From positions 1-59,799 of IMG/VR virus record IMGVR_UViG_3300025687_000048: a stretch of DNA of 59,799 nucleotides, one strand, 5' to 3'. The stretch is from a virus (Duplodnaviria > Caudoviricetes). Numbering within the stretch: position 1 is the first letter of the stretch; every line of letters begins with the position of its first letter. A model generated the notes under the pieces. The model was not told the origin of the DNA. It saw only the letters and a list, made by a program, of their open reading frames with translations, and did no database searches. The position numbers and the translations under genes were made by a program. Below are positions 1,495 through 59,799 of this stretch, piece after piece.

Positions 1495-1715
1495 AGGTCC
1501 GGCTCCTCTTCTTCTTCCTCCACCTCTTCTTCGACCCACTCCAGATCGTTCAGCCCGGCGATCACTTCCCGGGTTACGCCCTCTCCTGCTTCGGCACAGA
1601 GAGCGATACACACCGCCGCGATCTCCTCGGGCGAGCTCTGGCCGATCTCCTGAAGCACCGCTTCCAGATCAATGGTGCTGACGATACGGAGCGTGCGGGT
1701 CGTGACGACGCTCAC
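1491..1715 (-). CDS. Small acidic protein (74 aa)
   Basis: Coupled to the phosphoesterase stop; poly-Glu tail; conserved in copy B (58069-58302). Confidence 0.8.
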   Translation of the reverse strand: MSVVTTRTLRIVSTIDLEAVLQEIGQSSPEEIAAVCIALCAEAGEGVTREVIAGLNDLEWVEEEVEEEEEEPDL

Positions 1716-3187
1716 GCCGCCTCCCCGTAGTTCCAGTGCTTCCGCAGATCCTCGGCCATGCGCTCGGTGTAGTCCTGCCCCTCGAGGATGCTCCCGTGCA
1801 GCACGCAGCGCCCGTCCTGAATGTGGACGGTGTCGATGGAGCGGAAGGGGCTGTCGGGATCGTAGTAGATGACGCCGACGCCGTTCTGCCAATTGTGCGT
1901 CGGAGAGTTGCCCGGGATGGGACCGGGGATCAGCACACCGCACCCGAAGGACGCCGCGGTGTAGTAGGCCGGACCGTCGAACTCATGGGACGTGCGGGTG
2001 GCGCTCTCCACCCGGTGGATGTGCCCGTAGCCCTCCGAGTGCGCCTTGCCCTCCGCGAGCGTCTTGCCGGTCGTGCTGCCGCTCTTGGCCCCGACCTCGT
2101 TGCCGTGCCGCAGAGCCAGCCACCGATTCAGCCACACCTTGCCTTTCGGGTAGTCCTCATGCTCGGTGATCTTGAGCCGGTGCAGGCCGAGAAGGTTGGT
2201 CAGGCTCAGCACCTCCGGCGCGTCGGGCGGCTGGTTGGCCGGGCGGATCTTGTAGAGGCTCATCGTGTGGGAGATGACGGCCTTGCGGATGCGATCGTCG
2301 TGGTTGCCCGGCAGAAAGTCGATCTCTGCCTCGGGCGCAGCTGCGCGGATCTGGCTGAGAATCCACCCCGCCTCATAGAGCGTCGGCTGGAAGGTGTGAT
2401 AGAACTCCGGCGAGCAGAGGTACTTGTCGCTGAAGTCGGGCAGATCCAGAAGGTCGCCCAGGATGACCACCCGATGCGGGCGCACCTGGCGGATCGTCTG
2501 TAGGTAGACATCCACCACCCGCCTGTCGTGGAACGGGCTGTGCGCGCCTGACCCGAAGTCTCGAGCGAACCCTACATGGATGTCGGGGACGACGACGCAC
2601 CGCCGCATCCCCTCGGCTTCCAGGGGCTTCGTCTTGTGGGGCTTGACGTTGATGTGCGCCGGCTGGAGAGGTGGGATCTCCGTGACGATCGCACGGGCCA
2701 CCTTGCGGACGAGCTTCGCCTTGACTTGATACAGCGGCATGGCGACGAGTTGCTGCGAGTCGCTGTCGCCCACCTTCGCGCCGACCTCCCAGACGTTGGC
2801 TGTCCACGACTCAACGTGCCACTCCTCCGGGTCGATGTTGCAGGCTTGCAGAAGATCATCGAGGCTGCGCGGCTCTCGGTCGATGACGGTCGCCAGCTGC
2901 GCGGTGTTGCCGTCCTCGCTGTAGCTACGCTCCGGCTGCGGGCCGGGCTTGCTGGTGGGGGTCGTCTGATCGGGCCGGTTTGCGCCGGGCTTCCTTGGCG
3001 GGACCAGGGGCTTGCCCGATTCGTCGTAGGTCCGGCGCAGCATCTTCAGGCACGATCCGACCGTGCCCTTCTTGATGCCGGTGTCCTTGGCGATGTCCGA
3101 CTGACCCCACTCCTGACCCTTCGCCATTCCTTTCCAGTAGGAGTCGAAGACGGCTCTCTGATTGGGCGTCAGGTCGTCGAGGATCAT
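1712..3187 (-). CDS. Calcineurin-like metallophosphoesterase with N-terminal HTH
   Basis: DIH, GDLLD, GNHD, RHG and GHIH motifs; N-terminal QSDIAKDTGIKKGTV HTH. Confidence 0.88.
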   Translation of the reverse strand: MILDDLTPNQRAVFDSYWKGMAKGQEWGQSDIAKDTGIKKGTVGSCLKMLRRTYDESGKPLVPPRKPGANRPDQTTPTSKPGPQPERSYSEDGNTAQLATVIDREPRSLDDLLQACNIDPEEWHVESWTANVWEVGAKVGDSDSQQLVAMPLYQVKAKLVRKVARAIVTEIPPLQPAHINVKPHKTKPLEAEGMRRCVVVPDIHVGFARDFGSGAHSPFHDRRVVDVYLQTIRQVRPHRVVILGDLLDLPDFSDKYLCSPEFYHTFQPTLYEAGWILSQIRAAAPEAEIDFLPGNHDDRIRKAVISHTMSLYKIRPANQPPDAPEVLSLTNLLGLHRLKITEHEDYPKGKVWLNRWLALRHGNEVGAKSGSTTGKTLAEGKAHSEGYGHIHRVESATRTSHEFDGPAYYTAASFGCGVLIPGPIPGNSPTHNWQNGVGVIYYDPDSPFRSIDTVHIQDGRCVLHGSILEGQDYTERMAEDLRKHWNYGEAA

Positions 3188-3208
3188 GCAGGCCCCCCTA
3201 CGCGACGA

Positions 3209-3421
3209 TCATTTCGTGAGTAGGCCCCCGACAATGGCGATGGCCGTGCCGGCGATGGTCCCTCCGAGAGTGCCGTAAAGCGCCAACTTCACCTCGGCGG
3301 CTGTGAAGCGCATCTTCAGCTCCGTCAGTTCTTGGCGAACCGCCACAAGTTCCGCGTTCAGGCGTTCCAGTTCTTTCAGCACGTGGCGGCTCCACTCGTT
3401 CCAGCCATTCGGCTCGTTCAT
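3209..3421 (-). CDS. Coiled-coil + C-terminal TM protein (70 aa), holin/XhlA-like architecture
   Basis: MNEPNGWNEWSRHVLKELERL...LYGTLGGTIAGTAIAIVGGLL; ATGA overlap with the PAS gene. Confidence 0.65.
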   Translation of the reverse strand: MNEPNGWNEWSRHVLKELERLNAELVAVRQELTELKMRFTAAEVKLALYGTLGGTIAGTAIAIVGGLLTK

Positions 3422-3849
3422 CGGGGCCTCGTCCCCATGATCTTCAGCCCCTCTTGTGGCGAGTCCTGTATGAGACACACAGCGATGGGGTCGTGCCCCG
3501 CGATGTCTACCCGCTCGGCGTTGAGGTAGATCCACAGATACTCCCCGTCTGCCTTCCGGTATCGCTTGCGGATCTGGTAGTAGAAGAACTCCCCCGCAGC
3601 GAGCCTTTCAGCATACTCCATGTCCAACGCGAGGTCGTCGGGGTGCGTGAGGTTCATCCACCCCACCGCCCGCAACTCGTCCTCGCTGAAGCCCAACAGA
3701 TCCTCAAGCGCCCGATTCGCCAGAACGATGTTCCCGTCGAACGTAGAGATCAGTTTCGGGAACTGGCTCAACTCGTAACTCGCCCACAGCACGTCAGACG
3801 GGCGCATCCCGAGTTCTTCGGTCAGTTGGCGAAGGGCGGTCAGTGGCAT
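3418..3849 (-). CDS. Stand-alone PAS/PAC domain protein
   Basis: DGNIVLANRALEDLLGFSEDEL...LTHPDD...KRYRKADGEYLWI, a classic PAS+PAC pattern. Confidence 0.88.
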   Translation of the reverse strand: MPLTALRQLTEELGMRPSDVLWASYELSQFPKLISTFDGNIVLANRALEDLLGFSEDELRAVGWMNLTHPDDLALDMEYAERLAAGEFFYYQIRKRYRKADGEYLWIYLNAERVDIAGHDPIAVCLIQDSPQEGLKIMGTRPR

Positions 3850-3882: not shown

Positions 3883-4290
3883 TCAGTCTATCACCGCATC
3901 CAGCGCATCGGCCACGCGCCGCAGTCGCGTCCGATGCACCGCGTAGGTCGCTCCGCTGATCTTCACCATCGGGACGTTGGCCTCCTTCACGGCCACCAGT
4001 GCCTCTCGCCAGACCAGCTTCATCGAATCGCTGGCCGCACCATAGGGAACACTGAGGCGCACGTAGAGAGAGTCAGCGGGGTGAACCGAGAGCGTCACGC
4101 CAGCCGCCGCGAGGTCGGGATACTCCGACGCCATGACCGTCATGTAGGTCTGCACGTTGACGACCGAGCCGAGCGAGTCAGCCAGCGTGCGGAGACTGTC
4201 AATCTGCGACCGAACCGCGTCGAGTTGCTGCTGTGCCGTCTGCGCCGACAGAGGCATCGCCAGCGCGAAAATGAGAATGAGGTTACGCAT
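3883..4290 (-). CDS. Signal-peptide protein downstream of tail fibre (135 aa)
   Basis: MRNLILIFALAMPLSA|Q signal; GGAGG RBS. Confidence 0.75.
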   Translation of the reverse strand: MRNLILIFALAMPLSAQTAQQQLDAVRSQIDSLRTLADSLGSVVNVQTYMTVMASEYPDLAAAGVTLSVHPADSLYVRLSVPYGAASDSMKLVWREALVAVKEANVPMVKISGATYAVHRTRLRRVADALDAVID

Positions 4291-4303: not shown

Positions 4304-7300
4304 TTAGAACGCAGTGCTGTTGTTGCTGGTGGCCTGTCCGGTGCCCGAGTTGTCGGTCGGCGCTCCGTCGAAGCGGTTGGCGTTATAGAGCACGTTCTCA
4401 CAGTTGGTGTCGATCAGCAATGGCCCGTTGGTGGGGTCTTTCACCGTGTTGCCGACGACCAGTGAATTGTCAGCCAGCCCGTCGAGATACATGGAGTAGC
4501 TGCCCGTCCCGTAGAACACATTTCCGAGGAAGTTGTTGGCAAATCCGTTCGTGTAGATACCGTAGACATCTGTGTCGTAGAACTTGCTGTTGCGGACCTG
4601 CACGTAGTTGCCGTTTTCGGCAATGAAGATGCCCTGATTGTCGCACCCGTAAACACTAATGTTGTCGATCTGCGTGAGGTAGCCGTTGGCCTGAATGTGG
4701 ATTCCGTTGTTCTGCTGCCCGCCGCCCGGTGTCGTGCGAACCACCAAATCGCGGATGGTCGCCGCTTGGCCCGTAGAGAGGTCAATGGCATGATCTGTGG
4801 TGCCTCCGTCGATCAGCGTGTAGGGGCGGGTGTGGTCGGTCCAGTTCGATCCCGACCCTCGGATGTTCATGTAGTCCACGGTGACATCGAAGGGCAGATA
4901 CGTGCCCGGCATGATGTGGACGCTGTTCACATTCGCGTTGCCGCCCGCGTCGATGGCGTCCTCGACATGCCAGAACAGCCCGTTTGCGCCAGTCGAATCG
5001 ACCACCACCTCTGCGCCCACCATCGGCTGCACGAACGGATAGCGCCGATGCTGCGCGAGGTCCGCCACCTTCGGGTCGGGCTGCACAACTTGGAAGGCCG
5101 TCGAGTCCGCAATCGCCAATCCGAACGAATCAGCCATCGCCCAGATGGCGACATCGCGGATCTTGGCACCCGGCGCGGGATAGACGCTGTGCGGAATCAG
5201 GTGCACGCCAACCTTGGCCCACACCTTTACACTGTCGGCGTCTGCCGTGGCGACCCAGTTTCCCCCGCCGGGGATCGTGGCGACGGCGACGACGTTGGAA
5301 TCGGGGAGCGTGGGATCGGACAGGGGGGCGTTCATGGAAGCGACGAAGGCCCTGTGCCGCTCCTTGGCGTCCTCTGCCGACCATTTCGACTTCTGCACGG
5401 TTAGCATGGCAAGCTGGCCGTCAAAGTGAAATCCAGCCGCGAGGTTGGTCGCACCGACATACGCCGTGTCGGCTTCCACTTGGTTTGTGCTGGCTGCGCT
5501 CACGTCGCTGGCGTGCAGTTCCCCATCGACATAAAGGTAGACCGCCCCGATGTCACGGTCGGCCACCATCACGTAGTCGTGCCACGCACCGTCATAGAGA
5601 TCCGTCGCACCCGCCGCGATGTCGGACGACTGAGCCGCGTCATCGACAAAAGCGTTCATGTGGCCGTCGCTGTCGAAGTAGGCACCCCATGAGTCCGCTG
5701 TGCCGTTGTCCGGCATATAGACGATCCACTGATTGCCTGACGGATTCGTCGCGGATGCAGACTTGGCAGAGAAGGCCAGCGTAACACTGTTCCCGCTGGT
5801 CGAGCCACCCATCGTGAAGCCGTCAACTTCAGTGGCCCACATTAACGAGCCCACGGTCGAACTGTAGGCGTTGGAGAACGGGATGCTGACCTGTCCGCGT
5901 AGGAAGCCGGGACTACCGACAGTCGTCAGGTCATTGCCGTAGACAGAGGCATCTACTGTGTCGTAAAGAGCCCACGCGCCGTGTGTGTCACCTTTCTCTG
6001 CCGGTCCCTGATAGTCGTCGTGGAAACGCACTTTGATCCCGTCGGTGTTGACGGACGGCTTCGTCTGCATGCCGTAGAGCCCATAATCCGACGCCAGAAG
6101 GATGTAGGGCGCGTTCTCAATGGAGCCGTGTTCGATGGCGGCGATGTCGGAATAGACCGCCGCGTCGGGCCACGCGAGGTCCTCTGATCCGCTTCCACCG
6201 TTGTAGATCGCCTCGTTGTTTTGCCAGCCGTCTGCGGTTACAGAGAAGATGCTGCGCCTATAGACAGCAACGTCGTCGGATGTGCCATCTCCTATAGCAA
6301 ACCACCCTCCCCCCGGTAGAAGCAGGGAGCCGTTCTCGTCAGCATCTCCACTCCAGATGTTGGCATCGTAGATGGCGTTAGCATGGGGATTGAACGTGCT
6401 GCTATGATTCTCCGTCGATACGTGCCACCACTGTGCCGGCCAATCCCCGTCCTTCAGCCCGAACGGATCGCGGATCGCGGAAACGGCGTTAATATCGTCG
6501 TCGATGGTCCCGATGTTGGTGACTGCGTAGACGCCAACCCCGTTGTTGCGCCCAGCGATGTCATCTTTGAACCGCTGAATCGTCGTCGTGTAAACCAAGT
6601 CGATTACGTCGCTGCGGTAGTCTGCAATCGTCAGGCCCCAACCGCCCGGCTGGCCCATATACAGCTTGCCGTCCAGCCGCCAGACGCTCCCCACTGCGTC
6701 ACCGACAGCCGCCCTATTGTCGTTGGTTGTGCCAGCGACCTTGTAGACCTGCCACGGCGTCGTCATCGTGCGGCGATCCCACACCGCAACGGTGTCCTGC
6801 CCCTCGCTGATCGTCACGCACCACTCGTCGGGCCAGTAGCCGTCCGATGCGACGTAGCTGTTGTCGGCCTGTTCGGCGCGAAATAGGTCGAGATCCCACA
6901 TCCAGTAGGGGTTATAGTCGCTGCCGCAGATGACCTTTCTCGCGCTGTAGGTCGTCTTAGTGCAGTCGGGGTAGGAGATATTGGTGGAGAGGGTGGTGCC
7001 CGTCGGCAATCCGGTGATCGCTGATCCATCGCCGGCCAGGGCGCCCGCCGTCAGTGTGCCGCTGACCGTTGCGGGGCCGATCACCGTCAGACTGTCGGTG
7101 TTCAGCGTGTCGACCGAGGCGTATTCGAGGTCGGTCTGCTGACCGGCAGGCTGCGTCAGGTGCCCGTTGACAGAGGCCGTCGATCCTACAGAGAACGCAC
7201 CAGAGACAGTGGCGTCACCGATGACTGTGAGACTGTCGGTGGACAGGGTGTCGACCGAGGCGTATTCGAGGTCAGTCTGCGCCCCCGCTGGCTGCGTGAC

Positions 7301-7900
7301 CTGTCCGTTGAACGTCGCCGTCGAGCCGACCGAGAAGGCTCCGGTCACCGTCCCATCGCCGGCTACGGTCATCGAGTCGGCGCGGACGGTGTCCATATCC
7401 GCGATACCGTGGATCGTCAATGTGGCACCGGGAAGGAACGTCGCCGGGCCACCCACCGTGAGGCTGTCGGTGTTGAAGGTGTCCGTGTTGGCGTACGAGT
7501 AGAACGCCCGCTTGCCAGCACTCACACCTGTCACGAAGCCGACGATCGGTGTTCCCCCGAGGTAGAGAGAGTCGACGTTGGCTCGCCCGATGTTGGCTAT
7601 GTGAAACTCGAGAGAGTCCTCCGCGGCCAGGGACGCGATCTTGTGTTTCGTGATGATCTGGCCGATGGATCGAGAGACGAGTGTGTCGTGAGCTCCGAAC
7701 ACCGTCTTCGTCGAGTCGCCCGGATGGAGCGCGATGAGATTGTTGACCCACCCAACCGTCTCAGATCGGTCGGCGTTGTAGTCGCTGGCGGTGAAGAGTT
7801 CTCCGGCAGAGTAGCTCTTCCGCGCACTGACAGACGACAGGGCCGACAGGCCCGTGGTTGTGGCGAGTAGGACTGAGAGGGCGAGTAGGTAGCGTCTCAT
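4304..7900 (-). CDS. Tail fibre/spike (1198 aa): signal peptide, beta repeats, LamG-like domain, C-terminal parallel beta-helix
   Basis: GAGGAG RBS before MRRYLLALSVLL; DGAWHDYVMV...LYVDG LamG pattern; IMPGTY and GIxI repeats of pectin-lyase-like helix. Confidence 0.8.
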   Translation of the reverse strand: MRRYLLALSVLLATTTGLSALSSVSARKSYSAGELFTASDYNADRSETVGWVNNLIALHPGDSTKTVFGAHDTLVSRSIGQIITKHKIASLAAEDSLEFHIANIGRANVDSLYLGGTPIVGFVTGVSAGKRAFYSYANTDTFNTDSLTVGGPATFLPGATLTIHGIADMDTVRADSMTVAGDGTVTGAFSVGSTATFNGQVTQPAGAQTDLEYASVDTLSTDSLTVIGDATVSGAFSVGSTASVNGHLTQPAGQQTDLEYASVDTLNTDSLTVIGPATVSGTLTAGALAGDGSAITGLPTGTTLSTNISYPDCTKTTYSARKVICGSDYNPYWMWDLDLFRAEQADNSYVASDGYWPDEWCVTISEGQDTVAVWDRRTMTTPWQVYKVAGTTNDNRAAVGDAVGSVWRLDGKLYMGQPGGWGLTIADYRSDVIDLVYTTTIQRFKDDIAGRNNGVGVYAVTNIGTIDDDINAVSAIRDPFGLKDGDWPAQWWHVSTENHSSTFNPHANAIYDANIWSGDADENGSLLLPGGGWFAIGDGTSDDVAVYRRSIFSVTADGWQNNEAIYNGGSGSEDLAWPDAAVYSDIAAIEHGSIENAPYILLASDYGLYGMQTKPSVNTDGIKVRFHDDYQGPAEKGDTHGAWALYDTVDASVYGNDLTTVGSPGFLRGQVSIPFSNAYSSTVGSLMWATEVDGFTMGGSTSGNSVTLAFSAKSASATNPSGNQWIVYMPDNGTADSWGAYFDSDGHMNAFVDDAAQSSDIAAGATDLYDGAWHDYVMVADRDIGAVYLYVDGELHASDVSAASTNQVEADTAYVGATNLAAGFHFDGQLAMLTVQKSKWSAEDAKERHRAFVASMNAPLSDPTLPDSNVVAVATIPGGGNWVATADADSVKVWAKVGVHLIPHSVYPAPGAKIRDVAIWAMADSFGLAIADSTAFQVVQPDPKVADLAQHRRYPFVQPMVGAEVVVDSTGANGLFWHVEDAIDAGGNANVNSVHIMPGTYLPFDVTVDYMNIRGSGSNWTDHTRPYTLIDGGTTDHAIDLSTGQAATIRDLVVRTTPGGGQQNNGIHIQANGYLTQIDNISVYGCDNQGIFIAENGNYVQVRNSKFYDTDVYGIYTNGFANNFLGNVFYGTGSYSMYLDGLADNSLVVGNTVKDPTNGPLLIDTNCENVLYNANRFDGAPTDNSGTGQATSNNSTAF
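7060..7490 (-). repeat. 47-aa (141-nt) tandem repeats in fibre shaft
   Basis: gtgtcgaccgaggcgtattcgaggtc at 7107 and 7248; TDLEYASVDTL.TDSLTVIG twice, plus degenerate copies. Confidence 0.9.
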
Positions 7901-7908
7901 GGCTCCTC

Positions 7909-8307
7909 TTACGTCAGCGTCGAGCGGATGTTGTCGCGGGTTTCCGCGAATCGTTTGACCACGTCCCGGATGGCCTTCGCTCCGCCGCCGAGAACGATGC
8001 CCGTAATCACCACGTCGACATCGACAACACCCTCCCCGATGGGAGAGACGTCGACCAGATCCTTCAGGTCGATGCCCAGTCCTTCGATCAGAGCCGTCAG
8101 GGAGAAGGAGTAGGCCACGAAGACACCGACGATCATGGCGATCCAGGGGCGGAACTCGAAGTGGGTGAACCACCGGGAACCGGCGCCGTCAGGCCCCCTC
8201 CCGAGGTAGTACTGATAGGCCCGAGTGCGGAAGATGACCTCCAGAGCGGCAGTCATCAGAGCAGAGACGAAAGCCAGCTGCGTGAAGGTGAGGACGACGT
8301 CGCCCAT
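7909..8307 (-). CDS. Putative holin (132 aa)
   Basis: 2-3 hydrophobic segments, ITGIVLGGGA motif, charged C-terminus; adjacent to the spanin-like gene. Confidence 0.65.
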   Translation of the reverse strand: MGDVVLTFTQLAFVSALMTAALEVIFRTRAYQYYLGRGPDGAGSRWFTHFEFRPWIAMIVGVFVAYSFSLTALIEGLGIDLKDLVDVSPIGEGVVDVDVVITGIVLGGGAKAIRDVVKRFAETRDNIRSTLT

Positions 8308-8308
8308 G

Positions 8309-8914
8309 TCAGGCCACCTTCCTCTTGCGAGCACCGACGAGGTAGGCGATCAGAGCGAGGATGACACTCACGATCCCGCCTCCCCCGAGGGCCTGCTCGA
8401 TGGGGATGTTCTCCCCCTGTAGAAGGGCGATGGTCGCCTGGGCCTGTCGCAGGCGTTCCTGCACGTCGACAGACCTGTCCTGTAGGGAGCGCACCCGTTC
8501 CTGGAACTCGCGCACGCGCTTCTCAAGGAGGGTCTCGCGTTCGCTGATGTCCTGTGTAGCGACGGGCGCATCGACGGGGCGATTGCGGAGTTCCTCGAGT
8601 TCAGCACTGGCCGCGGCGAGATCCTTCTCGGCGCCGGCCTTCTGCGCCCGGATCTTGGCCAGATGATGGCGGGTCGTCGTGAGGACTGCGTCCGTCTCGT
8701 TGAGGCGGGACGTCAGGGATGCGACGGTGCTGTTCAGATCACCGATCTGGCGCGAACTCTCAGAGGCGAGGCTCTGTGCCTTCGACTCGAAGGTTCGCGC
8801 TTCCTCTTTCTTGGCCTCGTACTGGGCTTGCAGCTCCCCGAGTCGGTCGTTGACCTGGGCAGACCCACAGCCAATGGAGAGCGTGAGGAGGACGGCGAGG
8901 GGCATGAACTTCAT
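8309..8914 (-). CDS. Lipoprotein with coiled coil and C-terminal TM (unimolecular spanin-like)
   Basis: MKFMPLAVLLTLSIG-C lipobox; C-terminal IVSVILALIAYLVG followed by RKRK. Confidence 0.7.
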   Translation of the reverse strand: MKFMPLAVLLTLSIGCGSAQVNDRLGELQAQYEAKKEEARTFESKAQSLASESSRQIGDLNSTVASLTSRLNETDAVLTTTRHHLAKIRAQKAGAEKDLAAASAELEELRNRPVDAPVATQDISERETLLEKRVREFQERVRSLQDRSVDVQERLRQAQATIALLQGENIPIEQALGGGGIVSVILALIAYLVGARKRKVA

Positions 8915-8932
8915 GGATGAGCCTCCCAGAAC

Positions 8933-8977
8933 GACAAAAGGCGCATGGTGGACGAATCCTACCATGCGCCTTTTGTC
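8933..8977 (-). terminator. Intrinsic terminator hairpin upstream of the lysis/fibre module
   Basis: 17-bp inverted repeat gacaaaaggcgcatggt/accatgcgccttttgtc with a UUCG-capped loop on the - strand. Confidence 0.8.
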
Positions 8978-9026
8978 TGATGTTTTGTTGTCGCCGGGAG
9001 GCTCTACCTACATCCCGGCAGCGTTG

Positions 9027-9055
9027 AATCTACTACTCCTGCAATACCTTTGCTA
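9027..9055 (-). promoter_or_regulatory. Sigma70-like promoter
   Basis: TAGCAA-17 bp-TAGATT on the - strand. Confidence 0.5.
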
Positions 9056-9056
9056 C

Positions 9057-12000
9057 CTACATGCTGGACACCTTCACCAGCCTCTGGTACGGGCTGTCCG
9101 CAGCGTCCAGCCGCTTGCGGAGTTCCTTGATTGTCTTCGAGCGCCATCTGGACGTGCCGGAGGTCACCAGTTTGCGATCCTTGGCCGGCAGGGACTGGAG
9201 GAGACCTCTCATCCCCCCGAACTCTTCGAGGAGGGCGTTCGCCTTCGCGTCGAGTTCGTCGGCCTTCTCTGTGTGTCCCATGCGCCGGTAGCCCTGAGCC
9301 TGTCCTCGGAACCGGGCCAGTAGCAGTCGACGGTCCTCCATCGACATCTCGGGGTCGAAGCCATCGGGCGCGATCGCGGCGCGGAGCTTGCCCTGCGCGT
9401 TCTCTATCTGACTGCGCAGCTTCGTCGCCTCCTCTTCGTCCATCGCCCCGCGTGCGACAGCCCTTCCCAGAGCCGCGTTGAAGCGGGTCAGCTGGTCGTC
9501 ACCGATCAGCGTGTTGCCCGATCGCTTCACGATCTCCCGAGCCGTCTTGGCAGGCGTCCATTCACGCGGAGCCTTAAGCATCTGGCGGAGCATCGGCACG
9601 GAGTTGATCTCAGGAACGTCCCCCTTGGAGAGGGTGCGACCCGTAGCGATGCTGTTGCCGATGAACTTGCCCAGGCCCGACCCGAACTGATCGAGGAAGT
9701 GGTCCACCATCTCCGGGTTGATGTCGACGGTGTAGGGCGCGTTGATGTAGACCTCCTTGCCGTCCCATGTCTCCCCGACCTCGCCTCCCGTCATGCGGTA
9801 GAGCCAGCGGGTGAACTCCTTGGACGGCTCTCTCACAGAAGAGAAGGCCAGCTGCTGGTTCGATTTGTCGTTGCCGTAGACGACCTCCTTGCGGAGCGGT
9901 CGACCGGCGAAGTCCTTGTTCTCCCACCACTGCACGAATGGATCGACGGCAGACGGGGCCAAGAACTGGTTGAATGAACCGCCCCCGAGGGGGTTGAAGG
10001 CGTCATCGAAGGATGAGAGCACGCGCCCGGCAAGCTCCGGCAGGGTCACGTTCTGCGGAGTCCACTGACGGTCCACGGCTCCCCCGGCGAGGTCTCCGAT
10101 CACCGAGTCGGCCAGCACGTTCCCGAGGACGTGGAAGACGTTGTAGCCCCACGGCAGCTTCCAGCTGACGAACTTGCCCTCACCAGTCGGGACGAGGAAG
10201 TAGTTGTCCTTCGTCCAGTCATCGGTGTCGTCCCAGTCTTCCGGGTCGATCAACCGGTTGGCGATGCTCTGGAGGAAGCTCAATCCCACCAGTCCCGCGG
10301 CGATTCCCCGGACCTTTGGATACTTCAGCAGGGCGTGGAAGATGCGGAACGAGCCCTGGATGCCGGCGTTCGAGAAGAGCCACAGGCTGTTGAGCAGCTG
10401 CCCCAGTTCGCCCTTCTTGTTGAAGTTGACCGTCAGTTCCTTGGCAGCTGCCGCAGCATCCTTCTTCGATACGCCCTCTTCCACCAAGGTCCGATAGGTC
10501 GCCAGTCGGATGCCCGACTCCACCATCTCGTTGACGTCTGCGATGTAGTCGACCACAGCTCGGCCCGCGTTGAGCAGGTTCGGCTTCGCCATGCGGCCCA
10601 TGCGCTTCTGGAGATCCTCGGCCTTCTCGTCCAGGGACGCGACGTCGTACCAGCCCGTCTTGCCTCCCATGTCCTTGAACTCTTGATACCACTCCGACCA
10701 CTCGTTGGATCGCCCGTCCCGGATGTTGCGCCAGATGCCCTTGTAGGCGCCCCCCTTGAGAACGCGACCAACCACCTTCGCAGCGATCGCCCCCGACCGC
10801 TCGCCGGCCAGATGGATGCCCGCCGTCTGAAGGTCTCGCTCGAGGTTGGTGAGGATGAACTCCGGGTTCCAGATCGTCGCCATGCCTCGGAGGAACGAGT
10901 TGACCCCGTTGAGCCACTTGATCCCTCGCTCCATCCCGAGGTTCTTCATGCCCGACGCCAGAGCCGGATCGTGGATCGTGATGACGTGCTTCTTCCCGTC
11001 GACCCACGTCGAGAGGACGTTGTCGGCGTCCCGCACCTTCGGGTCCATGAACAGCAGGTTGCCGTCTTGGTCGTAGCGCGGGAGAAAGGTCTGCACCTGG
11101 GCCTCCCATGACTCGGACGGATGTAACTCGACGAGGTTCAGGAAGTGCTGGCCCACCTTGTTCTTCTCCGCGGCGATGATCGCCTCGGTGTGATCCGCGA
11201 TGGCCTGCGTGAAGGGGTTGTCCGCGACGGATCGACGCCCGTAGGCGCTGCGGATGCCGCGGCTCGGCACACTGAACCCCTTGCCCGTCACCGGGTGGTT
11301 CTCTGTGCCCGCCTTGCCCTTCAGGGGGACGTATCGCTCGAACTGGCCACGGAGACCGTCATACGCCTCCTGCGTCAGGAAGCCGGCCTCGAAGCGGAGA
11401 CGGAGCGTCTCCCGCGTCACACGGTCAAGGAACTCGTCAGCCAAGGACTGGGCCGCGAGGTTGTCGCCGTAGCGAGCGAGGATCTCGTCGGCCTCCTCGT
11501 CTGTCATACCGGACCCGCCGTCCTCGAAGTCAGGGTTCTTCGTGGCGATGTGCGCGTTGCGCTCCTTCGCGTGGCCTGCGTAGAGCAGCCAGCCCATATC
11601 GTCGATCGACAGGTCAGCCTCGACGGCACGCTTCAGGAAGTCTTCCTCCAGCCACTTGTCGAACTGCTCGATCTGCTCCGAGGCGCGACCGATGAACAGA
11701 GTGGCCTCGCGGTAGGTCTTGGCGTCCTCCTCGACATCCCCGATGATGTCCTCGACCTGCTCGAGGCGGTTGAGTTTGTCCTGCACGTAGCGACGGATCA
11801 GCTGGGAGGTCTTCTCCGGGGGAATCTCCAGGGGACGGTGGATGACCACGTCGCCATCCTCCTCCTCTGCGATGTGCCCCGGGGGGACTGCCTCGCGGAA
11901 CTGAGAGGAGTTCTCCATGCGGGAGATGATCTCCTCGACCTTCGCCTCTCCGAGCTTCTCGCGCAGCTGCGCTCCGCTGATCTTCGCGGCGCCGGGCTGG

Positions 12001-15000
12001 TTGCTCAGACGATCCGCGAGTTCCCGTAAGACGTCGTCGCCGCGCTGGAAGCGGGGAGTCTGGTCGCGGAAGAATCGTTGGAGTTCGCCGATGGAGTTGA
12101 AGCGATGATACCCACCGCCGTATTCGAGATTGATGCCCATCGAGCGATAGTCGCGGGCAACCGTAGCGATGGAGCGGATCTGCGCCGGAGTCGGAGTCCC
12201 CTCGGCCTGGACCTCCAGGGCGTCGCCAAGGCTTTGGACGACCCGCATGGCGCCGGTTTCCTCCATGAAAGGGGTGAGGGCGTCTTCTCCGCCCCTCCCG
12301 TCCATAGCAGCGGCAGCCATGGTGTGATGGTCTTCGGGCCGGGCGGTCACTGTGCCGTCTGCCAGAATGAATCCGGCATCAGAAGACCCATCGTATTCTC
12401 CTCCGGCCACCTCCAGCATCCGCTGCTCCAGCGGGTGGAGCCCCTTTCTCTGGAAGCGGATGTCCGGGTTCTCCGCGTCGAAGGTGCCGCGGTTGCCGGT
12501 GGCGCTCTTGATCTGGGTGGGATTGAAGGCGACGTAGACGGTCGAGCGACCTTGGCGCTCGACGCGCACCCTGTTGGGATCGTCGGCGTAGGCGTCCCGA
12601 ATCTCGGTCCACGTATCCACTTCGATCTCCGCGTCCCGCAGAAGATCCTCCAGATACTCGAACTGTCGATGTGCGGGGAGCGCGTTCTGCTCTTCCTCCG
12701 ACAGGGATTCCCAGGTTCGGATCTCCCTCCGGTAGTAGTCGACCTCCTCTTGATACCCATTGACCACATCGGTCAACATCTTGAGGGGGTTCTCCCGGCC
12801 CGAGGGGTTCTTCTGGAACTCCTCGATGTCGAGGAACATTTCTGACCGGTGGTCGATCGGCAGATCCTTGCCGTCGAGAGTCATCTTCGGAGGAGATGGA
12901 CTGTCGTAGGTGTTCTCCACGATCAATCCATCGTGCCCGCCACTCTCTGCCTGAGTGACAGCGTCGATCATGCTGAACTCGTAGCCCTCTCCATCGAGCA
13001 CAAGGGGATTGCGGAACGCCAGATACACCGGAAGGATGGACACGCCCCGCTCGTCCGAGTCAGCTTCGTTCCGCCCCCATGCCTTCGTCTTGGACAGGCG
13101 CCCAAAGTTCTCTGCGACGTCAGGAACGGACGTGAAGAAGTGGCCTTTCTTGGCAGAGGCTGTCCCCGTGGACTCCCCCAGCTTCTCCGCACTGAAGGCG
13201 TCGATCGGCTTCCTCTCCGATGTCCCATGGAACGCCTCGACGGCCACCGGCTTTCCAGTCTCGAAGGCGGCTTTGCCCTGGGCAACGTCGTCACGGGTGT
13301 AGATGGTGGCGTCCTTGCCAGCCCACCGTCTGAACCACCGGCTGTCGGTGCCTTTCTCCTGCCACTCCTTCTTCGCCTGCTCCTCGCGGCTCGGGGGAGC
13401 TCCAGCAGCTTCAGCGGGGGCGAACAGGTCGTTCTGCGCCTTGGCGCGTGCCGAGGCGCCTGCGGCCTCGAATAGGCCCGTGCCTTCCAGTCCCTTGCCG
13501 TCGCTGGCGCGGGCGCCTGTGGGCAGCTGCCGCTGATCTCCGAAGGAGAAGCCTGTCTGGTCCGGGTCGAAGGCGGGGTTGTACCGCTTCTTCCTCTGGA
13601 ACCTCACCGGCTTGATGGCGTCCTCCGGGGAGGACTGGCTGACGATCTCCTGAATCGCTCCCTCGGGGTAGAGCCGGTTCTTGACCTCGGGCTGGTCCAG
13701 TTCCTTGACGTCGCGGTGGCCCCACGGCTCCCAACCGACATCGGGGCGGTTGAAGAACTGCGTGACACGCCACGGCTTCTCGGTGCGATTGGGCATCGGG
13801 TTCTTGCTGATGACGTAGCGGTTCTTTCCGATCTCCACCGCGCCCCCGTTCGGGCCGATGACATCGCGGATCGCCTGCTGACGTCGAGCGTCCTGCGTCT
13901 CGATCTCCGCGAGCCACTGGTCCATCGTCAGATCGCTCGATGGACGCACGGCCTTCTCTCCTGTCCAGGTGGCCTTCCGCTGAAAGCGGGGCGCCCGGAA
14001 CTTCTGCACCTTCTTCGCCCGGTCATCTTGGTCCCCAGGCTTGTAGGTCAGGATGCGCTTGACGCCGTTCTGCTTGAGGATGTCCAGCACGTCCTCGTCG
14101 GTGCCACGCGGCACGACGGCGCCGGCCCACTCGCTCAGATCGACGGCCCGCTGCGGCTTCGCCTCGAAGTAGGCCGTGGGCGTCCTCTCCAGCTTCTCGG
14201 CCACCTCGAGGAAGTCTGACACCAGCCGCTCGGGCACGCCTCGGTAGCCGTTCTTCGACAGGGCTCGCATCGCGCCCCGGACACCTTTCGGTCCGTTCTT
14301 CAGGTAGTCGCCCATCGCCTTCGACGCATCGTCGAAACGGTCGAAGGACATCGCTCCCGGGTCGGCCCACTCGTAGTGTTCCCGCAGGCGATCGACCAGC
14401 GGGAAGAACTCGGACTCCTGCAACTCCTTCGTGGCGGCGTCAACCTCGTCCTTCGTCACGATGCCGCCCGCTTCGGAGCGCATCTGCTCGACAGACGTGA
14501 ACGGCTTGGCCGCTGCCGCCCTCGACTGGCCCAGCCCGTAGACCAGCCCACCCTCCTGTCCACTGGTGCCCCGCCGCGTCATTTCGGCAAGGATCTCCTG
14601 TAGACGGTAGGGCTGCTTGCGGCCCGCGTCGGTCGTGAAGAACTCACCCCCCTGCACGACCCCGAACGTCTCCCGCACCCACTTCTCGACGGCCTCGTTG
14701 CCGCCGGCCTTCTTCACGGCCCGGTCGATGCGCTTGTCGAAAAGATCGTTGTTGGGCTCTCGCTCTCGTGAAGCGATGGCGCGGAGATCCTCGGCGAACT
14801 TGTCGACGGCGTTGAATCCCAGCAGGTCGGTGTCGGCGCTGAACAGATCCTCACGGAAGTCGGCCCGCAATTCGCTCACCTCGCCGGTGAGTGACTCGTC
14901 CAGCAGGGCCAGCGCCACCTCCGACAGCTCGCGGTGGTCGTCGCCGCCGAACTCGATTCCGCTGGGGATCTTCCGCCCCTTCGCCGCGATGAAGTCGCGG

Positions 15001-18000
15001 ATCACCTTGGACTTGGGACTGACGCCGGGGATGCGACTGCGCGGCTTGCGCGGCTTCGTCGGCGTCTCGATCTCCACGCCCTGCTCTTTCAGGAACCACA
15101 GGCGCAGCCTCCGGTGAGAGTCGCCGTATCCCTCCGTCGCTTCGTAGATCGCGTTCTCGAGGCCGCGATCCAGATTCATTTGCTCCAGGTCGTTGTGGGC
15201 GTCCCAGTCGGCCCTCCACAGGCCCGTCTTCGCCATCCGCGACGCCAACTTCTCCATCTCATCGTCCTGTAGATGGTATTCGCGGCGCGGCTGGCGACGG
15301 GTGTAGGCGTCAGCTGGGTAGGTCTTGTTCGTCGAAATCTCCGGGTCGACCAGATCCTTCGTGCCGATCAGTGTGATGTCACCGTAGCGCAGGGCGTCCT
15401 TCACCTTGTCTGGCGTCGTGATCGCCAGCGACGGGACCGGCAGGCCACCGAGCTCCACCTGATTGCGGATGCCCTCGGCGGTCGTGCCGTGGACGGCGAT
15501 CAGCGGCGGGCCGCCCTCGGCGCCACGCTTCTTCTGGAAGCGGGCAACCTCTTCGATGCTGATGGCGTTCTCGTCGAAGACGACGTAGTTGTGGCCGTCT
15601 CCTGGGCCAGCCGCGCTCAACGAACTGGTCGGATAGCGGATGCCGTCGATGCCAGCACGCAACAGGAAGAGAGATGCGGCCCTGTCCGACCGGATGGGCT
15701 TGATCGGACTGAAGGCCCGGTCTTCCTCCCACATCTTCTCGTTGTGCTCCAGTGCCGCCAGTCGCGCATCGTCCCAGTTGTCGACGTAGTCCGCGATGAC
15801 CTCGCCATTTGTGGAGACTCGGTATCCCTGAAACTGATTGCCAACGATGCGATACTCTTCCTCCGTCATCTCATTGAAGGCAGTCCACTCATACTCTTGG
15901 TTTTCGATGGCGTCGTCATAGGCGCGGCTCTGTGCCACTTCCTCTGCCCGCTCTTCGAGAGCGTCCTCGTCGACCTCACCATCCTCCCCGATGAACTCGT
16001 CTCGCAGTTCCTCCTTGACCTCGGGGAGCATCTCCTTGGCCTGCTCGTCGGCGTAGCTGTGATCCAAGGGGATAGGCTCGCCGTTCGCCTCGTATAAGTA
16101 TATCTCTGGCGCCTCCTCATTGTCGTAGGTGTCCCATGCGCCCGTGATGACTTCGCCGCGTGTGTATCCTTCCTCGACGTCGGCGGTCTCAAGCGGGGGT
16201 GTGGCGTACCATGTGTCGGTGTAGAAGCCGGCGTCGAGCGTTCCCTCGATGGCGTCGAGGGCTTCCTGCTTGGAGTCGTAGAGCACCCCGCCACCCATGT
16301 ATTTGATGATGCTCGGGTGACGGACCCGCCAGAGCTCCTTGTCGGGAACCTTGTCGATCTCGAACCCGGAACGGGCTTCGTCTTTCATCTCGCCCGCCGT
16401 CTTGAACTCCACCTTCCACCCCGGAGGGGGATCGAGTTTCTCCGCAGCGTGATACTGTAGGTTGACCTCGAGGACGTTGCGGTAGATGAAGCTGAACGAT
16501 CCTTGGCGGATCTCCTCCTCGTCCAGGAACAGACCCTCCTCGCCGCCCTGACGGAGGATCTTGTCGGCCTGCTCGTTGGTCAGTTCCTCGTACCAGTCGA
16601 CGTAGTCATACTCGCTGGGGTCTTTGCCCTTGTGAAGCGCGACCTTGTAGCCATATGCGCCGGGCTTCTCGGGGATGACGAAGTCTTCGAGGTCGGCATC
16701 CTTGAGAGTCTCCTCCCAGAAATCGGCCAGCCTCTGCATGTCGTCCTTGGCAGCCCCATCCGCGGCATGACTCAGCCGAGCCGGAATGACCTCCGCCAGA
16801 TGGCCCATCATGTAGTCGAACATCGACCGACCACCGTCCGGGTGGAAGGCGTTTCTCGCGTAGTCGAGGAGGGCGTCGAGATCCGACACAGTGTCTTGCG
16901 CTCCGACTCCTGACCACCACGTCGTATGCCCGGGCGTCGGGAACCGAATGATGCCGCCGTGGGCTTTGATACCGGGCTGCTCATGGTTCCGTCGCTTGAA
17001 CTGTTCCAGATAGGAGTGGAACACCCCGTCTGTGTCGGTGAAGTAGCCGCCCCATCCGAACGCTTGGGCTCCCTCTCCTGTGCCCACCTGTGAGAGGGCG
17101 AAGTTCGAGAACTTGTGCGGCGAGGCGTGCTTCACCATCAGCTGATAGCGTGGATCGTCCTTCGACAGACCCGCGACATACTCTCGGTGCGCCCATTCGC
17201 CCATGACCTGGGCAACGGAGTTTCGCACTGCCTCGACGTCCTTCAGGTAGGCGTCTTGGTTGTACGACTGGTTGAAGGCGAGGCGGATCTTCGTGAGCAG
17301 CTGCTTGAGGTAGTTGTAGACCTGACGCACCACGTCGGGCGCCTGCTCTTGCAGGTTGACCCAGAACTCGCGCTCTGTCATGCGAGCGCCCACGACGTCG
17401 GCAGCGAGCTCCTCGACGGCCAGGGATGTGTTGTCACCGAACTGCCGTCCCCCCTTGTGGCGGAGCCAGCGGCGGGTGGCCCCGTCCTCCTTCAGGGTGG
17501 TGACGAGCTTGTCGAAGAGGTCTGGCTGATCGTCGGCCAGCAGATGGGTCAGTTCGTGCCCAACGACAGCGACGTGGTGGTTGTCGGTGTCGACGTTGAG
17601 GAAGACGGAGCCTTCAAAGGTGACCCCGTTGAACGACCCGGCGCTCGGGTTGGTGGCCTTGATCCAGACGAGGTTCTTGCCGAAGACCTTGGCGATCTTC
17701 GCTGCCGCCTCGGCGCTACGGTGGCCGGGCTGGTCTACTCGTTGAAGGGAACCGCTCGGGAAGTCAGGGAACCCGTCCCGCTGGTTCGCTTCGCGGACTG
17801 CGCTCTCAAGACGAGCAACAGCCTGTTCCTCCATATGGCGAGCATCTGCCGCTGACGTTCCTCGAACGTCATTCCCTGGAACCCGTTGAGGCAGTTCACT
17901 CGCGTCTGCATCGCTCTTCCGCTGGAAGGGAGTGATGTCTCCAAAGAAATCGCCTCGCCGCTTCACCGTGTCAAGGATCTGGTTCAGGCGGTCTCCGAAT

Positions 18001-34261: not shown

Positions 34262-34825
34262 TCATCGAGGCAGCGGGTTGTAGCTCCAGCCCGCGATCAC
34301 GGTGGAGATTACCGTGTCCGCGGCGCCGCCCGCCGTCTCGATCTTCAGCCGTCCGAAGCGTGCAGACCCGATTCGGGCCATGTCATACGCTCCGACGTCG
34401 GAGGTATCCGCGAACGGATGGAACACCGTCTTGTAGCCGGTGAAATCCGCCGAGGACGCCGTCGAGAACACCGGTTCGACCGACACCCAGTTCAGCTTGT
34501 CGATCGACACCTGGAGAGAACAGATGACCGACTGAGTTCCGCCTGCCGTGCCCTGGCGCTGGTCCACATCCCAGTAGAACGAGAGGGTGCGCAGGTTGGC
34601 GAGCGTGATCTCGGTGGTCGTCGTGTCCTTCCCGGCAGTACCGATGATCGTGTCGAGCTCGGTCCCGACAGTGGTCAGACCGTCGCCGTTCGACCAGTTG
34701 AGCGTGTCGGCGTAGGTCCGCGTGCCAGAATCGAGGTCGGTGCTTCGCAGCTTGGCGTCGGCGTCCGTCACCGCCCCGAGGGCGACGATGAACGCCAGAG
34801 CCAGACCGCAGAGGATGCGCTTCAT
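34262..34825 (-). CDS. Signal-peptide protein right after the major capsid gene (decoration-like, 187 aa)
   Basis: GAGGAGG RBS; MKRILCGLALAFIVALGAVTDADA|K; LQVSIDKLNW beta-sandwich-like motif. Confidence 0.75.
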   Translation of the reverse strand: MKRILCGLALAFIVALGAVTDADAKLRSTDLDSGTRTYADTLNWSNGDGLTTVGTELDTIIGTAGKDTTTTEITLANLRTLSFYWDVDQRQGTAGGTQSVICSLQVSIDKLNWVSVEPVFSTASSADFTGYKTVFHPFADTSDVGAYDMARIGSARFGRLKIETAGGAADTVISTVIAGWSYNPLPR

Positions 34826-37608: not shown

Positions 37609-37772
37609 CAGCAGCAGCCCCCCTTCTTCGTGGTCTTCTTGGGACTCACGTTGGGGTTGCCGGGGCCGCGCTTGACCGACTGGTGGAAGGGCATCCGCCC
37701 CATGTTCTGCGACTCTTCCTGCGAGCAGACCTTCACGTTCTGTCCCTTGAACGAGGACTTGCCCTTGTGCAT
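37608..37772 (-). CDS. Small basic protein (54 aa)
   Basis: MHKGKSS...KKTTKKGGCC; coupled to both neighbours. Confidence 0.55.
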   Translation of the reverse strand: MHKGKSSFKGQNVKVCSQEESQNMGRMPFHQSVKRGPGNPNVSPKKTTKKGGCC

Positions 37773-38533
37773 CAGTATGCCCTCCGTCGACCGATGAGTG
37801 TGGCTGAGATGCTCTGGTCGACGGCGCCTCCCTTGGCCACCACGGCGATCGCACTCTTCTGTGGGAGTTGCTTGCCAATTGCCCACTGGTGCGGTTCACC
37901 ACCGTTGGCGATCGTGCCGCTGACGATCACGTCGTAGTCGGCACTGAAAGACCAGAAGGGGCCTGTCTGCGGGTAGAGGCGGAGTTCGTACGAGGTCGAG
38001 TTGCCGCCGCCGTTGTTCTCGATGATGAAGTAGTCCAGGACCGGTCTGTCGGGTTTGCCAAAGACGACGAGGGCCTGTGGTTCCCAGAAGACGCCCGCGG
38101 CGATCGTCCCCAGCTGCACAGCCGATCCCTTGGTGTGGAACACCTTGAACGTGCCGGCCATCGTGGAGTCGAGGTAGGCGGATTCATACCAGTGGATCGC
38201 AGAGTCGGTGACGGCGGTGTCGCCGCCCGCGATGGCCAGCTGCTGTTCGATGCGCCTGCCGCTGACAGAGAGGCCCGTCACGGTGACGTAGGCCGTGTCG
38301 GTGACCGTTCCCGCTGACGTCGTGTCGTGTGCGACGTAGATGACCGAGTCCTTGGCCGTCGCCGCGAACTGCGCATCCCCGGTGACAAGCTCGAACGAGC
38401 CGTCGATGTCGGTGTCGGTGACGTGGATGTAGAACCCGTCACCGGAGGACGCTCCGGCGCCCGGGTTGTAGTTGAGCGGCTCTGCGAAGGAAGCGCCCGC
38501 AAGGAGGGCGATCAGTGCGATGTAGCGGATCAT
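37772..38533 (-). CDS. Signal-peptide, beta-rich protein right after the portal (253 aa)
   Basis: MIRYIALIALLAGASFA|E; ATGA overlap with the portal stop. Confidence 0.78.
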   Translation of the reverse strand: MIRYIALIALLAGASFAEPLNYNPGAGASSGDGFYIHVTDTDIDGSFELVTGDAQFAATAKDSVIYVAHDTTSAGTVTDTAYVTVTGLSVSGRRIEQQLAIAGGDTAVTDSAIHWYESAYLDSTMAGTFKVFHTKGSAVQLGTIAAGVFWEPQALVVFGKPDRPVLDYFIIENNGGGNSTSYELRLYPQTGPFWSFSADYDVIVSGTIANGGEPHQWAIGKQLPQKSAIAVVAKGGAVDQSISATLIGRRRAY

Positions 38534-46695: not shown

Positions 46696-47033
46696 CACGC
46701 GGCACGCCTCTGGCGGGTCTCGAAGAACCCGTCCAGTTCCGGCTCGTCGTCCATGAGCCTGCGGGCGTAGAGCGCACGGTAGGAGTTGTTCAGCTTCCAC
46801 TCCTCCCCGGTGGTGGCCAGGGACGACCACCGGAGAACCTCGAACATCTGATTGATCGAGCCTCTGTCTTTGCCGGCGCGGCTCTGTCCGAGGGCCATGT
46901 GGGCCAGCGCCTTGTAGACGTGGGGGTTCGCCGCATGGAAGGCGAGGAACGCCTGCTCGACGGAGTCGGTGGGGTTCCGCCGCACGTCGTTGAGAGGAAG
47001 CCCCAGCTGCTCCAGAGGGAGGGTCTGGTTCAC
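46695..47033 (-). CDS. Conserved phage hypothetical protein (112 aa)
   Basis: FHAANPHVY...FEVLRW...KLNNSYRALYAR pattern. Confidence 0.7.
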   Translation of the reverse strand: MNQTLPLEQLGLPLNDVRRNPTDSVEQAFLAFHAANPHVYKALAHMALGQSRAGKDRGSINQMFEVLRWSSLATTGEEWKLNNSYRALYARRLMDDEPELDGFFETRQRRAA

Positions 47034-47623
47034 GCGAACGGCTCCCTCTCCTGCTCCTTCCACTGGGCAGAGCGGAGATCCCAGTAGGCAGGCGTGAGGC
47101 GCGGGTCGACGTGGATGTGGCCGTCGTAGAGGCCGATGCCGCGGAAGCCGACCTCCTTGGCCATCTCGCCGAGGATGCGGATTTGCTGCGGCAGGGGTGT
47201 CCGGGGGGAGATGCGGGGCGATCGCTGTGACGGGGTCAGGTCGAGCGCGAAGCGATTGCTCTCAGGGTGACCGGTGTCCAGCAGTAGGTGTTGGGAGTCC
47301 TCGGCGCCCATGTCGACCTCGGGGCCGAACTCCTCGATCATGCGCTCCCGTAGTTCCTCGGCGGTCCACCGCTGGCCGCGTGCCCTGGCGAGGATGGGGC
47401 CGCGCTCCTCGACGGGGAGGCCGACGACCACGTTGTAGAGCGGATGGCGAAACCCGGAGGTCGCCTGAAGAGGAGCTCCCCACTTCGAGCGCAGCTGCTG
47501 CGCCTTCTCCATTCCCTCGAGGAAGGCGGGACAGACGAGCACATGCCCTGTCAGAGGATCGACGAACTGATCCTCTGACTTCCACTCGAAGTTGGGCGTA
47601 CGCGGCGTGACCGGAAACAGCAT
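47030..47623 (-). CDS. Peptidase M15A-family endolysin
   Basis: TSGFR, SQH, ALD, GIGLY and HIHVD zinc peptidase motifs. Confidence 0.85.
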   Translation of the reverse strand: MLFPVTPRTPNFEWKSEDQFVDPLTGHVLVCPAFLEGMEKAQQLRSKWGAPLQATSGFRHPLYNVVVGLPVEERGPILARARGQRWTAEELRERMIEEFGPEVDMGAEDSQHLLLDTGHPESNRFALDLTPSQRSPRISPRTPLPQQIRILGEMAKEVGFRGIGLYDGHIHVDPRLTPAYWDLRSAQWKEQEREPFA

Positions 47624-47805
47624 GACAACCCCCTTCTGCGACTGGGCCACACCAGACGCCGGATGGGTAGGCACCCGGCGCCCGGTGGACCCGTGAAGGA
47701 CAGAGCAGTCGCTTGGGGAAGGGGTAGGGTGGGTAGAGTCACCCGGGGCCTCCTCACCTGCTCCGTCCTGTGCTGGACCCGCGGGGCCTTCACCTCCCAC
47801 AGATC

Positions 47806-57489: not shown

Positions 57490-57680
57490 CGGTTGGATAA
57501 CAACGAGCCCAGAGCGTGCAGCCAGAGCCGAGGGAATCCCGCTCCTACAGAGCCTCTGTGATCCGAGGTGAGCCTTGCCGTCCTACATCATGCAGATTTG
57601 CAGGTGTGCACCTATACCCCCATAGGGCCGCAACGACTTACAGCGGCGATACCTGCACAGTAGATAACGATTAGATAACA
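57469..57680. promoter_or_regulatory. Second attP-like region
   Basis: Same 3+2 arrangement of RGATAAC repeats as 462-673. Confidence 0.7.
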
Positions 57681-57841
57681 GCGGATGACCGACACCGACC
57701 AGCACTACCTCGCCGCCGACATGCGCCGGTGCCTCGAAGAGGGCTCGCCAGAGACAGGGAACCGTACCGGCTCGGGACGTGCGGAGGTGGCTGAAGGTGC
57801 TGGCCGACCCTCCGATTGCTCACCGTCCTGAGCAGAATTAC

Positions 57842-59777: not shown

Positions 59778-59799
59778 GGGGGGCCTCTACGCTCGGCGC

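Follow-up and report, generated by a model that had tools for sequence, protein, structure and literature searches.

Bacteroidota O-glycosylate non-cytoplasmic proteins at the sequon D-(S/T)-x, in which, according to a review of the system (PMC12871550), D is almost obligatory and E not tolerated, S is used slightly more than T, and the third residue is, in order of frequency, L, I, V, T, A, S or M. The same review gives the motif as enriched in predicted non-cytoplasmic proteins 'mainly in Bacteroidota' and the oligosaccharyltransferase of the system as still unknown (PMC12871550); as this transferase is undiscovered, there is no marker gene to search for. The subject here is a sequon-rich, fibre-like protein encoded at 4304..7900 of a virus contig of 59,799 nucleotides (Duplodnaviria; Caudoviricetes; IMG/VR record IMGVR_UViG_3300025687_000048; the whole contig is called the window below), together with three smaller proteins of the same phage that, like it, carry predicted signal peptides. 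The motif in which they are rich was recognized in an initial annotation of the DNA as the Bacteroidota sequon used on non-cytoplasmic proteins, an identification with which the review agrees (PMC12871550). The setting differs from the bacterial one in that the carriers are phage-encoded and the excess is about 3-fold, against 1.6-1.9-fold in two small host samples; moreover, glycosylation is established on the proteins of Bacteroidota, whereas here the motif is read from the sequence, in a phage whose host apparently uses Shine-Dalgarno sites. Phage structural proteins with sugars are found in mycobacteriophages, where they are the work of the phages' own cytoplasmic glycosyltransferases on capsid and tail proteins; in the window phage no transferase gene was found, and the proposed route would instead be export, followed by the periplasmic system of the host. 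The proteins and regions at issue are these:

4304..7900, minus strand: fibre-like protein of 1198 amino acids (aa) with an N-terminal signal peptide and 17 sequons (translation, Pfam, shuffles)
7823..7900, minus strand: predicted signal peptide of the fibre, residues 1-26, MRRYLLALSVLLATTTGLSALSSVSA (our own rule)
6911..7822, minus strand: sequon-rich N-terminal shaft, residues 27-330, 11 sequons (shuffles)
7064..7345, minus strand: two tandem 141-nucleotide (47-aa) shaft repeats with two sequons each (DTL, DSL)
5369..5797, minus strand: Laminin_G_3 (concanavalin-like lectin) domain, residues 702-844, not sequon-enriched (Pfam, E 1e-9)
4382..4795, minus strand: right-handed beta-helix (Beta_helix), residues 1036-1173 (Pfam PF13229, E 1.8e-7)
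3883..4290, minus strand: 135-aa signal-peptide protein with 4 sequons, just downstream of the fibre
34262..34825, minus strand: 187-aa signal-peptide protein with 4 strict sequons, just after the major capsid gene
37772..38533, minus strand: 253-aa signal-peptide protein with 6 sequons and a predicted jelly-roll fold, just after the portal gene

Signal peptides were called by a rule of our own, not by SignalP: a basic N-terminus, an uncharged hydrophobic core and small residues at -3/-1. All four proteins have predicted signal peptides by this rule, with starts conserved in their homologues, and the Shine-Dalgarno sites before all four starts (among them GAGGAG before the ATG of the fibre, and GGAGG upstream of that of the 135-aa protein) argue that the hydrophobic N-termini are translated. 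The signal peptide of the fibre is kept in the related phage G001, with ALA|LS in place of the LSA|LS of the window.

The strict motif D-[ST]-[AILVMT] was counted against 2000 composition-preserving shuffles per protein. The counts made by hand in the initial annotation are exact, both for the four proteins (17 in the 1198 aa of the fibre, 11 of them at residues 62-269; 4 in 135 aa; 4 in 187 aa; 6 in 253 aa) and for those given for comparison (0 in the 722 aa of the portal, 2 in the nozzle open reading frame (ORF), 3 in the capsid protein). Against the shuffles, the fibre has 17 sequons where 7.6±2.6 are expected (p 0.0015), the 135-aa protein 4 vs 0.7 (p 0.001) and the 253-aa protein 6 vs 1.1 (p 0.0005); the 187-aa protein, with 4 vs 1.6 (p 0.058), is not significant singly. 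Pooled, the four carry 31 vs 11.1±3.1, a count that none of the 2000 shuffles reaches, and the other 32 proteins of the window 38 vs 42.0±6.2. Control motifs in the four proteins stand near expectation when the order is reversed (14 vs 11.0) or D is replaced by E (3 vs 2.9) or N (6 vs 6.1), and D-[ST] followed by residues outside the set occurs 11 times vs 14.9; A, I, L, V, M or T follows D-[ST] in 31 of 42 cases in the four proteins vs 38 of 104 elsewhere (Fisher p 5e-5). It might be held that proteins of beta structure rich in D, S and T often contain this tripeptide by composition or chance, and the four are in fact richer in S/T and aliphatics than the rest, with the 187-aa protein alone at p 0.058; the shuffles, the reversed motif of equal composition, and the z values of 16 in the relatives and 12-29 in the protein family described below already refute this explanation, to which we give a negligible probability.

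The fibre sites lie at residues 62, 72, 95, 110, 145, 170, 175, 217, 222, 264 and 269 of the shaft, where 11 sequons stand against 2.5 expected (0 of 5000 shuffles reach 11). The copies of the 47-aa repeat are not independent; with one of them removed, the fibre still has 15 vs 6.8 (p 0.003). The first 200 aa, including the signal peptide, are 33% identical to the G001 protein at the equivalent position, the remainder being unrelated; several sequons of the two fibres align, with S and T swapped, and residues 21-250 of the G001 fibre hold 8 sequons vs 2.3 expected.

Relatives of the portal protein (37-49% identity) occur in metagenomes and uncultured viral contigs only; a single portal protein as query gave no match in genome or viral contigs, and searches with portal alignments gave 2, 6 and 21 loci. 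After removal of duplicates, and with the window excluded, 25 related stretches were analysed with our own ORF caller and the signal-peptide rule, borderline signal scores (2.0-2.5) being excluded from both classes. Their 23 signal-peptide proteins hold 138 sequons vs 42.7±5.9 expected (3.2-fold; z 16), their 232 other proteins 163 vs 167.2; the control motifs of the former stand at 1.05-fold (reversed), 0.81-fold (E variant), 0.72-fold (N variant), 1.04-fold (D-[ST] with other third residues) and 1.06-fold (G variant). DS-X is raised more than DT-X (4.1-fold vs 2.45-fold), and in the third position L (2.8), I (1.8), T (1.7) and V (1.6) are favored while F, W, Y, K, R, Q, N, E and P are depleted. 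These preferences agree with those given for Bacteroidota in the review (D and not E, S over T, L/I/V/T), except that A is not enriched. The excess is present in all 13 loci in which a gene of the post-portal family, to which the 253-aa protein belongs, follows the portal (range 5 vs 1.4 to 15 vs 2.6), and the signal-peptide protein encoded after the capsid gene has 4-5 sequons vs about 1 expected in G001, L003, L021 and L023; L017 has such a post-capsid member too, with its sequons aligned, the shuffle comparison covering the other four. Among isolate phages the portal has no tblastn match and the capsid matches at only 23%; for two members of the 253-aa family, a search of 50,697 records gave none. 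A further protein of G001 (L009, 10061-10432), of 123 aa, has a twin-arginine-like N-terminus (MQRRSVLKGLGL...).

In three unrelated families the sites keep their positions, with variation between S and T and in the third residue. In the post-portal family, sequon columns are filled in up to 11 of the 12 aligned signal-peptide members with interchange at both places, and the thirteenth row of the alignment, a signal-less protein of G001, has no sequons in these columns; in the post-capsid family, whose members are 19-41% identical, just nine columns are invariant, and these include D40, D58, D67-T68 and T171 of the sequons. The sequon is thus enriched, the effect is specific to this motif and tied to predicted signal peptides, and it is conserved through a clade of uncultured phages: the signal-peptide proteins named in the initial annotation are indeed sequon-rich, in the window and in its relatives.

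The reading we favor is that selection maintains the D-(S/T)-aliphatic tripeptides of exported phage proteins because they accept glycans from a general O-glycosylation system in the periplasm of the host, similar in kind to that of Bacteroidota, and we put its probability at roughly one half. The signal peptide would carry each protein across the inner membrane via Sec, a lipid-linked glycan of the host would there be moved onto S or T of exposed sequons, and the glycosylated proteins would act outside the cytoplasm. No glycosyltransferase is encoded by the phage as far as can be judged from 30 + 16 translated Pfam queries over its ORFs (the 5557-aa protein in two halves), a result in line with the initial annotation, which saw none either.

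A number of observations weigh against this reading. The genes and signal peptides behind every count were called by our own rules, and the replicates are not independent, since 12 of the 23 proteins of the relatives come from a single family and L019 is closely related to L020. Other observations bear on a structural explanation, in which D and the following S or T cap a loop, the aliphatic residue opens a beta strand, and the frequency of the tripeptide reflects fold and descent. The test for this is in proteins of the same fold without signal peptide, for which the post-portal family was expanded by profile (153 representatives among 1.84 billion proteins; 149 new sequences, of which 11 fragments, 3 long fusions and 2 ambiguous ones were dropped). 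The 107 full-length signal-peptide homologues of the 253-aa protein hold 624 sequons vs 183 (3.4-fold; 3.9-, 2.7- and 3.4-fold by rank third), while the 26 signal-less ones, some of which could be mis-called starts, hold 52 vs 32.1 (1.6-fold). This is the difference predicted in the initial annotation, which had proposed signal-less homologues as a control; the remaining 1.6-fold excess and the sequon columns 63 and 79 (reference positions), common to both classes, nevertheless indicate that part of the signal is structural or inherited with the fold. A structure model of the 253-aa protein (predicted local distance difference test, pLDDT, 92) places the D residues of the sequons at loop-to-strand junctions in the manner of a strand cap, the fibre sites recur inside a repeated shaft unit, and G-[ST]-X is raised in the four window proteins as well (23 vs 12.8).

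On the other hand, within the same fold the signal-peptide forms have twice the excess, and several sites are specific to them: site 91 is occupied in 47% of these forms vs 0% of the signal-less ones and site 105 in 37% vs 4%, and columns 91, 105, 96, 107, 110, 122, 142 and 178 are nearly confined to them. The third position is poor in aromatic residues, although these would start a strand just as well; neither E nor N takes the place of D, and three unrelated families show the effect. The distal part of the fibre cuts both ways: its roughly 870 residues (331-1198) have 6 sequons vs 4.7 (p 0.33), so that the greater part of the protein is not enriched, yet this part is all-beta and should be enriched if beta structure were the cause. 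A purely structural origin is rather unlikely, though not negligible; the larger part of the sequon excess goes with predicted export. For the post-capsid family, a homologue search gave 5 proteins only, too few for a signal-less control.

The glycosylation reading further depends on a host with the system. The signature is seen in two small bacterial samples: a Phocaeicola record has 39 sequons vs 24.6 in 18 signal-peptide proteins (1.59-fold), and plasmid pRMAR01 of Rhodothermus marinus (L099, high-GC, 8638-21117) has 25 vs 13.4 in 7 exported proteins (1.87-fold) and 12 vs 17.8 in its other proteins; Rhodothermia thus seem to share the signature. In both samples the reversed motif is raised as well (1.49-fold, 1.55-fold), so that these positive controls are not clean; in the Salinibacter phage M1EM-1, no protein passed the signal-peptide rule. 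Bacteroides phage B40-8 (L105; host B. fragilis) encodes at 15801-16406 a signal-anchored protein of 201 aa with 5 sequons vs 0.8, adjoining a putative peptidase, and has a signal-less tail fibre with 8 vs 6.2; it is one known-host example of a similar tendency.

Nothing independent ties the window phage to Bacteroidota, and the host of FCB-like (Fibrobacteres-Chlorobi-Bacteroidetes) affiliation assumed in the initial annotation is not borne out by integrase, Shine-Dalgarno use or relatives in metagenome-assembled genomes (MAGs). The integrase matches elements of Firmicutes, Thermus and Actinobacteria at 23-30% identity, with no affinity to Bacteroidota, and integrase relatives of 39% identity lie on contigs of 436 kb and 527 kb; relatives of the large terminase TerL infect many phyla and are uninformative on the host. 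In the window, 22 of 35 genes have a Shine-Dalgarno-like site (control window, 12 of 35); for the signal-peptide genes of the relatives the count is 13 of 24 (control, 4 of 24), as compared with 7 of 39 in the Rhodothermus plasmid and 2 of 37 in the Salinibacter phage. Bacteroidia largely lack such sites, and their use here argues against a host in that class. Among genome records, relatives occur only on short contigs of one Gemmatimonadaceae and one Phycisphaerae MAG, and a portal profile in the two phyla found 1 of 168 and 1 of 301 genomes, each time the centre genome alone. In these two MAGs, secretome samples show no excess: 21 vs 22.5 in 17 signal-peptide proteins (0.93-fold) for Gemmatimonadaceae and 36 vs 34.2 in 31 (1.05-fold) for Phycisphaerae. 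The same figures argue against a structural origin, in that signal-peptide proteins of two other bacteria are without excess. Look-alikes of the 253-aa protein and of the fibre in the atlas are mostly or wholly viral and none indicates a host; a few lower-scoring look-alikes of the fibre fall into clusters of Archaea, Verrucomicrobiota or Fidelibacterota. Perhaps the host comes from a deep or unsampled lineage with the system; the glycosylation reading may also be wrong.

What the glycosylated proteins would do on the virion surface is less certain than the glycosylation itself. Most likely they would be peripheral virion parts, namely the proximal shaft of the fibre and two decoration-like proteins of jelly-roll fold; this role is suggested by the fibre, with its conserved N-terminus and its variable distal part of lectin and beta-helix, and by the 253-aa jelly roll, whose predicted fold resembles capsid coat and cement proteins at middling Z. 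Jelly-roll cement or decoration proteins, such as the trimeric cement of KHP40 (PDB 7dou) and the turret of HFTV1 (8qpg), are alike at the level of a fold that is very common; Foldseek against the PDB gave only jelly-roll matches with low template-modelling (TM) scores, and the matches in BFVD are uncharacterised phage proteins. By eye, long members of the post-portal family have a lectin-like domain inserted in the alignment. To our knowledge, decoration proteins known so far are without signal peptide, and we know of no route by which Sec-exported proteins reach the particle of a tailed phage. The exported proteins might attach to completed particles only at lysis, once the compartments mix; this is the least certain step of the mechanism, and we hold it tentatively, as rather less than probable.

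Both small proteins are also similar to XepA, a prophage protein that is exported, and to YomS, a relative of XepA (of PBSX and SPbeta, respectively; PDB 6i56 and 6i5o), and in G001 the gene of the post-portal family lies away from the portal; both points tell against a place on the virion. In another reading the proteins are exported and glycosylated but are no part of the virion, and would work in the envelope in the course of lysis or lysogeny: they might, for instance, assist lysis as XepA-like accessories, mask receptors, or be secreted to bind or depolymerise glycans. The data fit peripheral, possibly glycan-binding virion decorations and exported non-virion proteins equally well, and we regard the non-virion role as quite unlikely. 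The fullest form of the favored reading, in which an uncultured podophage clade has Sec-exported virion parts glycosylated by the host and docked at lysis, the host being a Shine-Dalgarno-using lineage outside the classical Bacteroidia, is doubtful as a whole.

That the 1198-aa protein is a tail fibre or tailspike is suggested by its position in the tail module, its conserved N-terminus and its variable distal lectin and beta-helix domains. Like gp17 of T7-type phages, it follows the nozzle and internal-protein genes, beside the lysis genes, with a conserved N-terminus and an exchangeable distal part; unlike gp17, it has a predicted N-terminal signal peptide of Sec type and matches no solved fibre sequence (searches of PDB sequences with the fibre and with the proteins labelled A4 and A2 gave no match). 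Its look-alikes in the atlas are viral Laminin_G_3 proteins, with PF26696 (PTL_trimer) in 14-31% of the members of the top three clusters; across five related viral records, no homologue of the fibre was found. For the 135-aa protein neither Pfam nor PHROGs gives a family.

The window is the whole 59.8-kb phage contig, with 64% GC. Its ends are diverged copies of each other (1-677 vs 57008-57684, 94.1%; 1503-3188 vs 58090-59778, 89.7%), so that the unique genome is about 57 kb and the 3' end of the integrase gene and a gene for a 491-aa metallophosphoesterase-like protein are each present twice, as variants; the contig could be a mixture of two strains assembled as a circle, or a tandem pair of related prophages. 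Genes identified by Pfam and PHROGs are those of a portal of P22 type, the major capsid protein, the large terminase and a virion structural protein at the nozzle position, and among the remaining genes an M15 peptidase, Erf, Gam, HNH and a tyrosine integrase. The gene order is nozzle, a 1446-aa protein, a 412-aa protein, a 5557-aa polyvalent protein (ORF 9057-25730, minus strand; ResIII/SNF2 helicase, PBECR5 nuclease, polyvalent-protein ADP-ribosyltransferase, LPD38), the lysis genes and the fibre. No tRNA or tmRNA genes were found in the window. The features around the fibre are:

8309..8914, minus strand: protein with lipoprotein-type signal and C-terminal membrane helix, unimolecular-spanin-like (N-terminus MKFMPLAVLLTLSIG|CGS; hydrophobic from residue 172)
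7909..8334, minus strand: 141-aa holin-like protein (two hydrophobic helices), encoded immediately upstream of the fibre
3418-3849, minus strand: 143-aa PAS-domain protein, between the genes of the exported 135-aa protein and of the metallophosphoesterase

The spanin-like lipoprotein has 0 sequons vs 0.5 expected (0 vs 0.4-0.5 for the 218-aa ORF 8309-8965). The M15 peptidase (47030-47800) lies 39 kb from the spanin-like and holin-like genes. Several GGATAAC-type repeats occur at 57470-57690, directly past the stop codon of the integrase; they may be arm-type binding sites of an attachment region.

In full-text literature searches we found no paper describing general O-glycosylation of phage proteins by the host. 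If the favored reading is true, this would be the first case we have found of a phage that relies on the periplasmic general O-glycosylation of its host rather than on cytoplasmic transferases of its own, and the question would sharpen to the route by which exported proteins reach a tailed-phage particle; with a host that uses Shine-Dalgarno sites, the known range of the D-S/T-aliphatic system would be extended as well. A sequon excess in exported phage proteins could then serve as a marker for host prediction in lineages with the system, and the 253-aa jelly roll and proteins like it, small natural substrates that fold well and are dense in sequons, could help to find its still unknown transferase.

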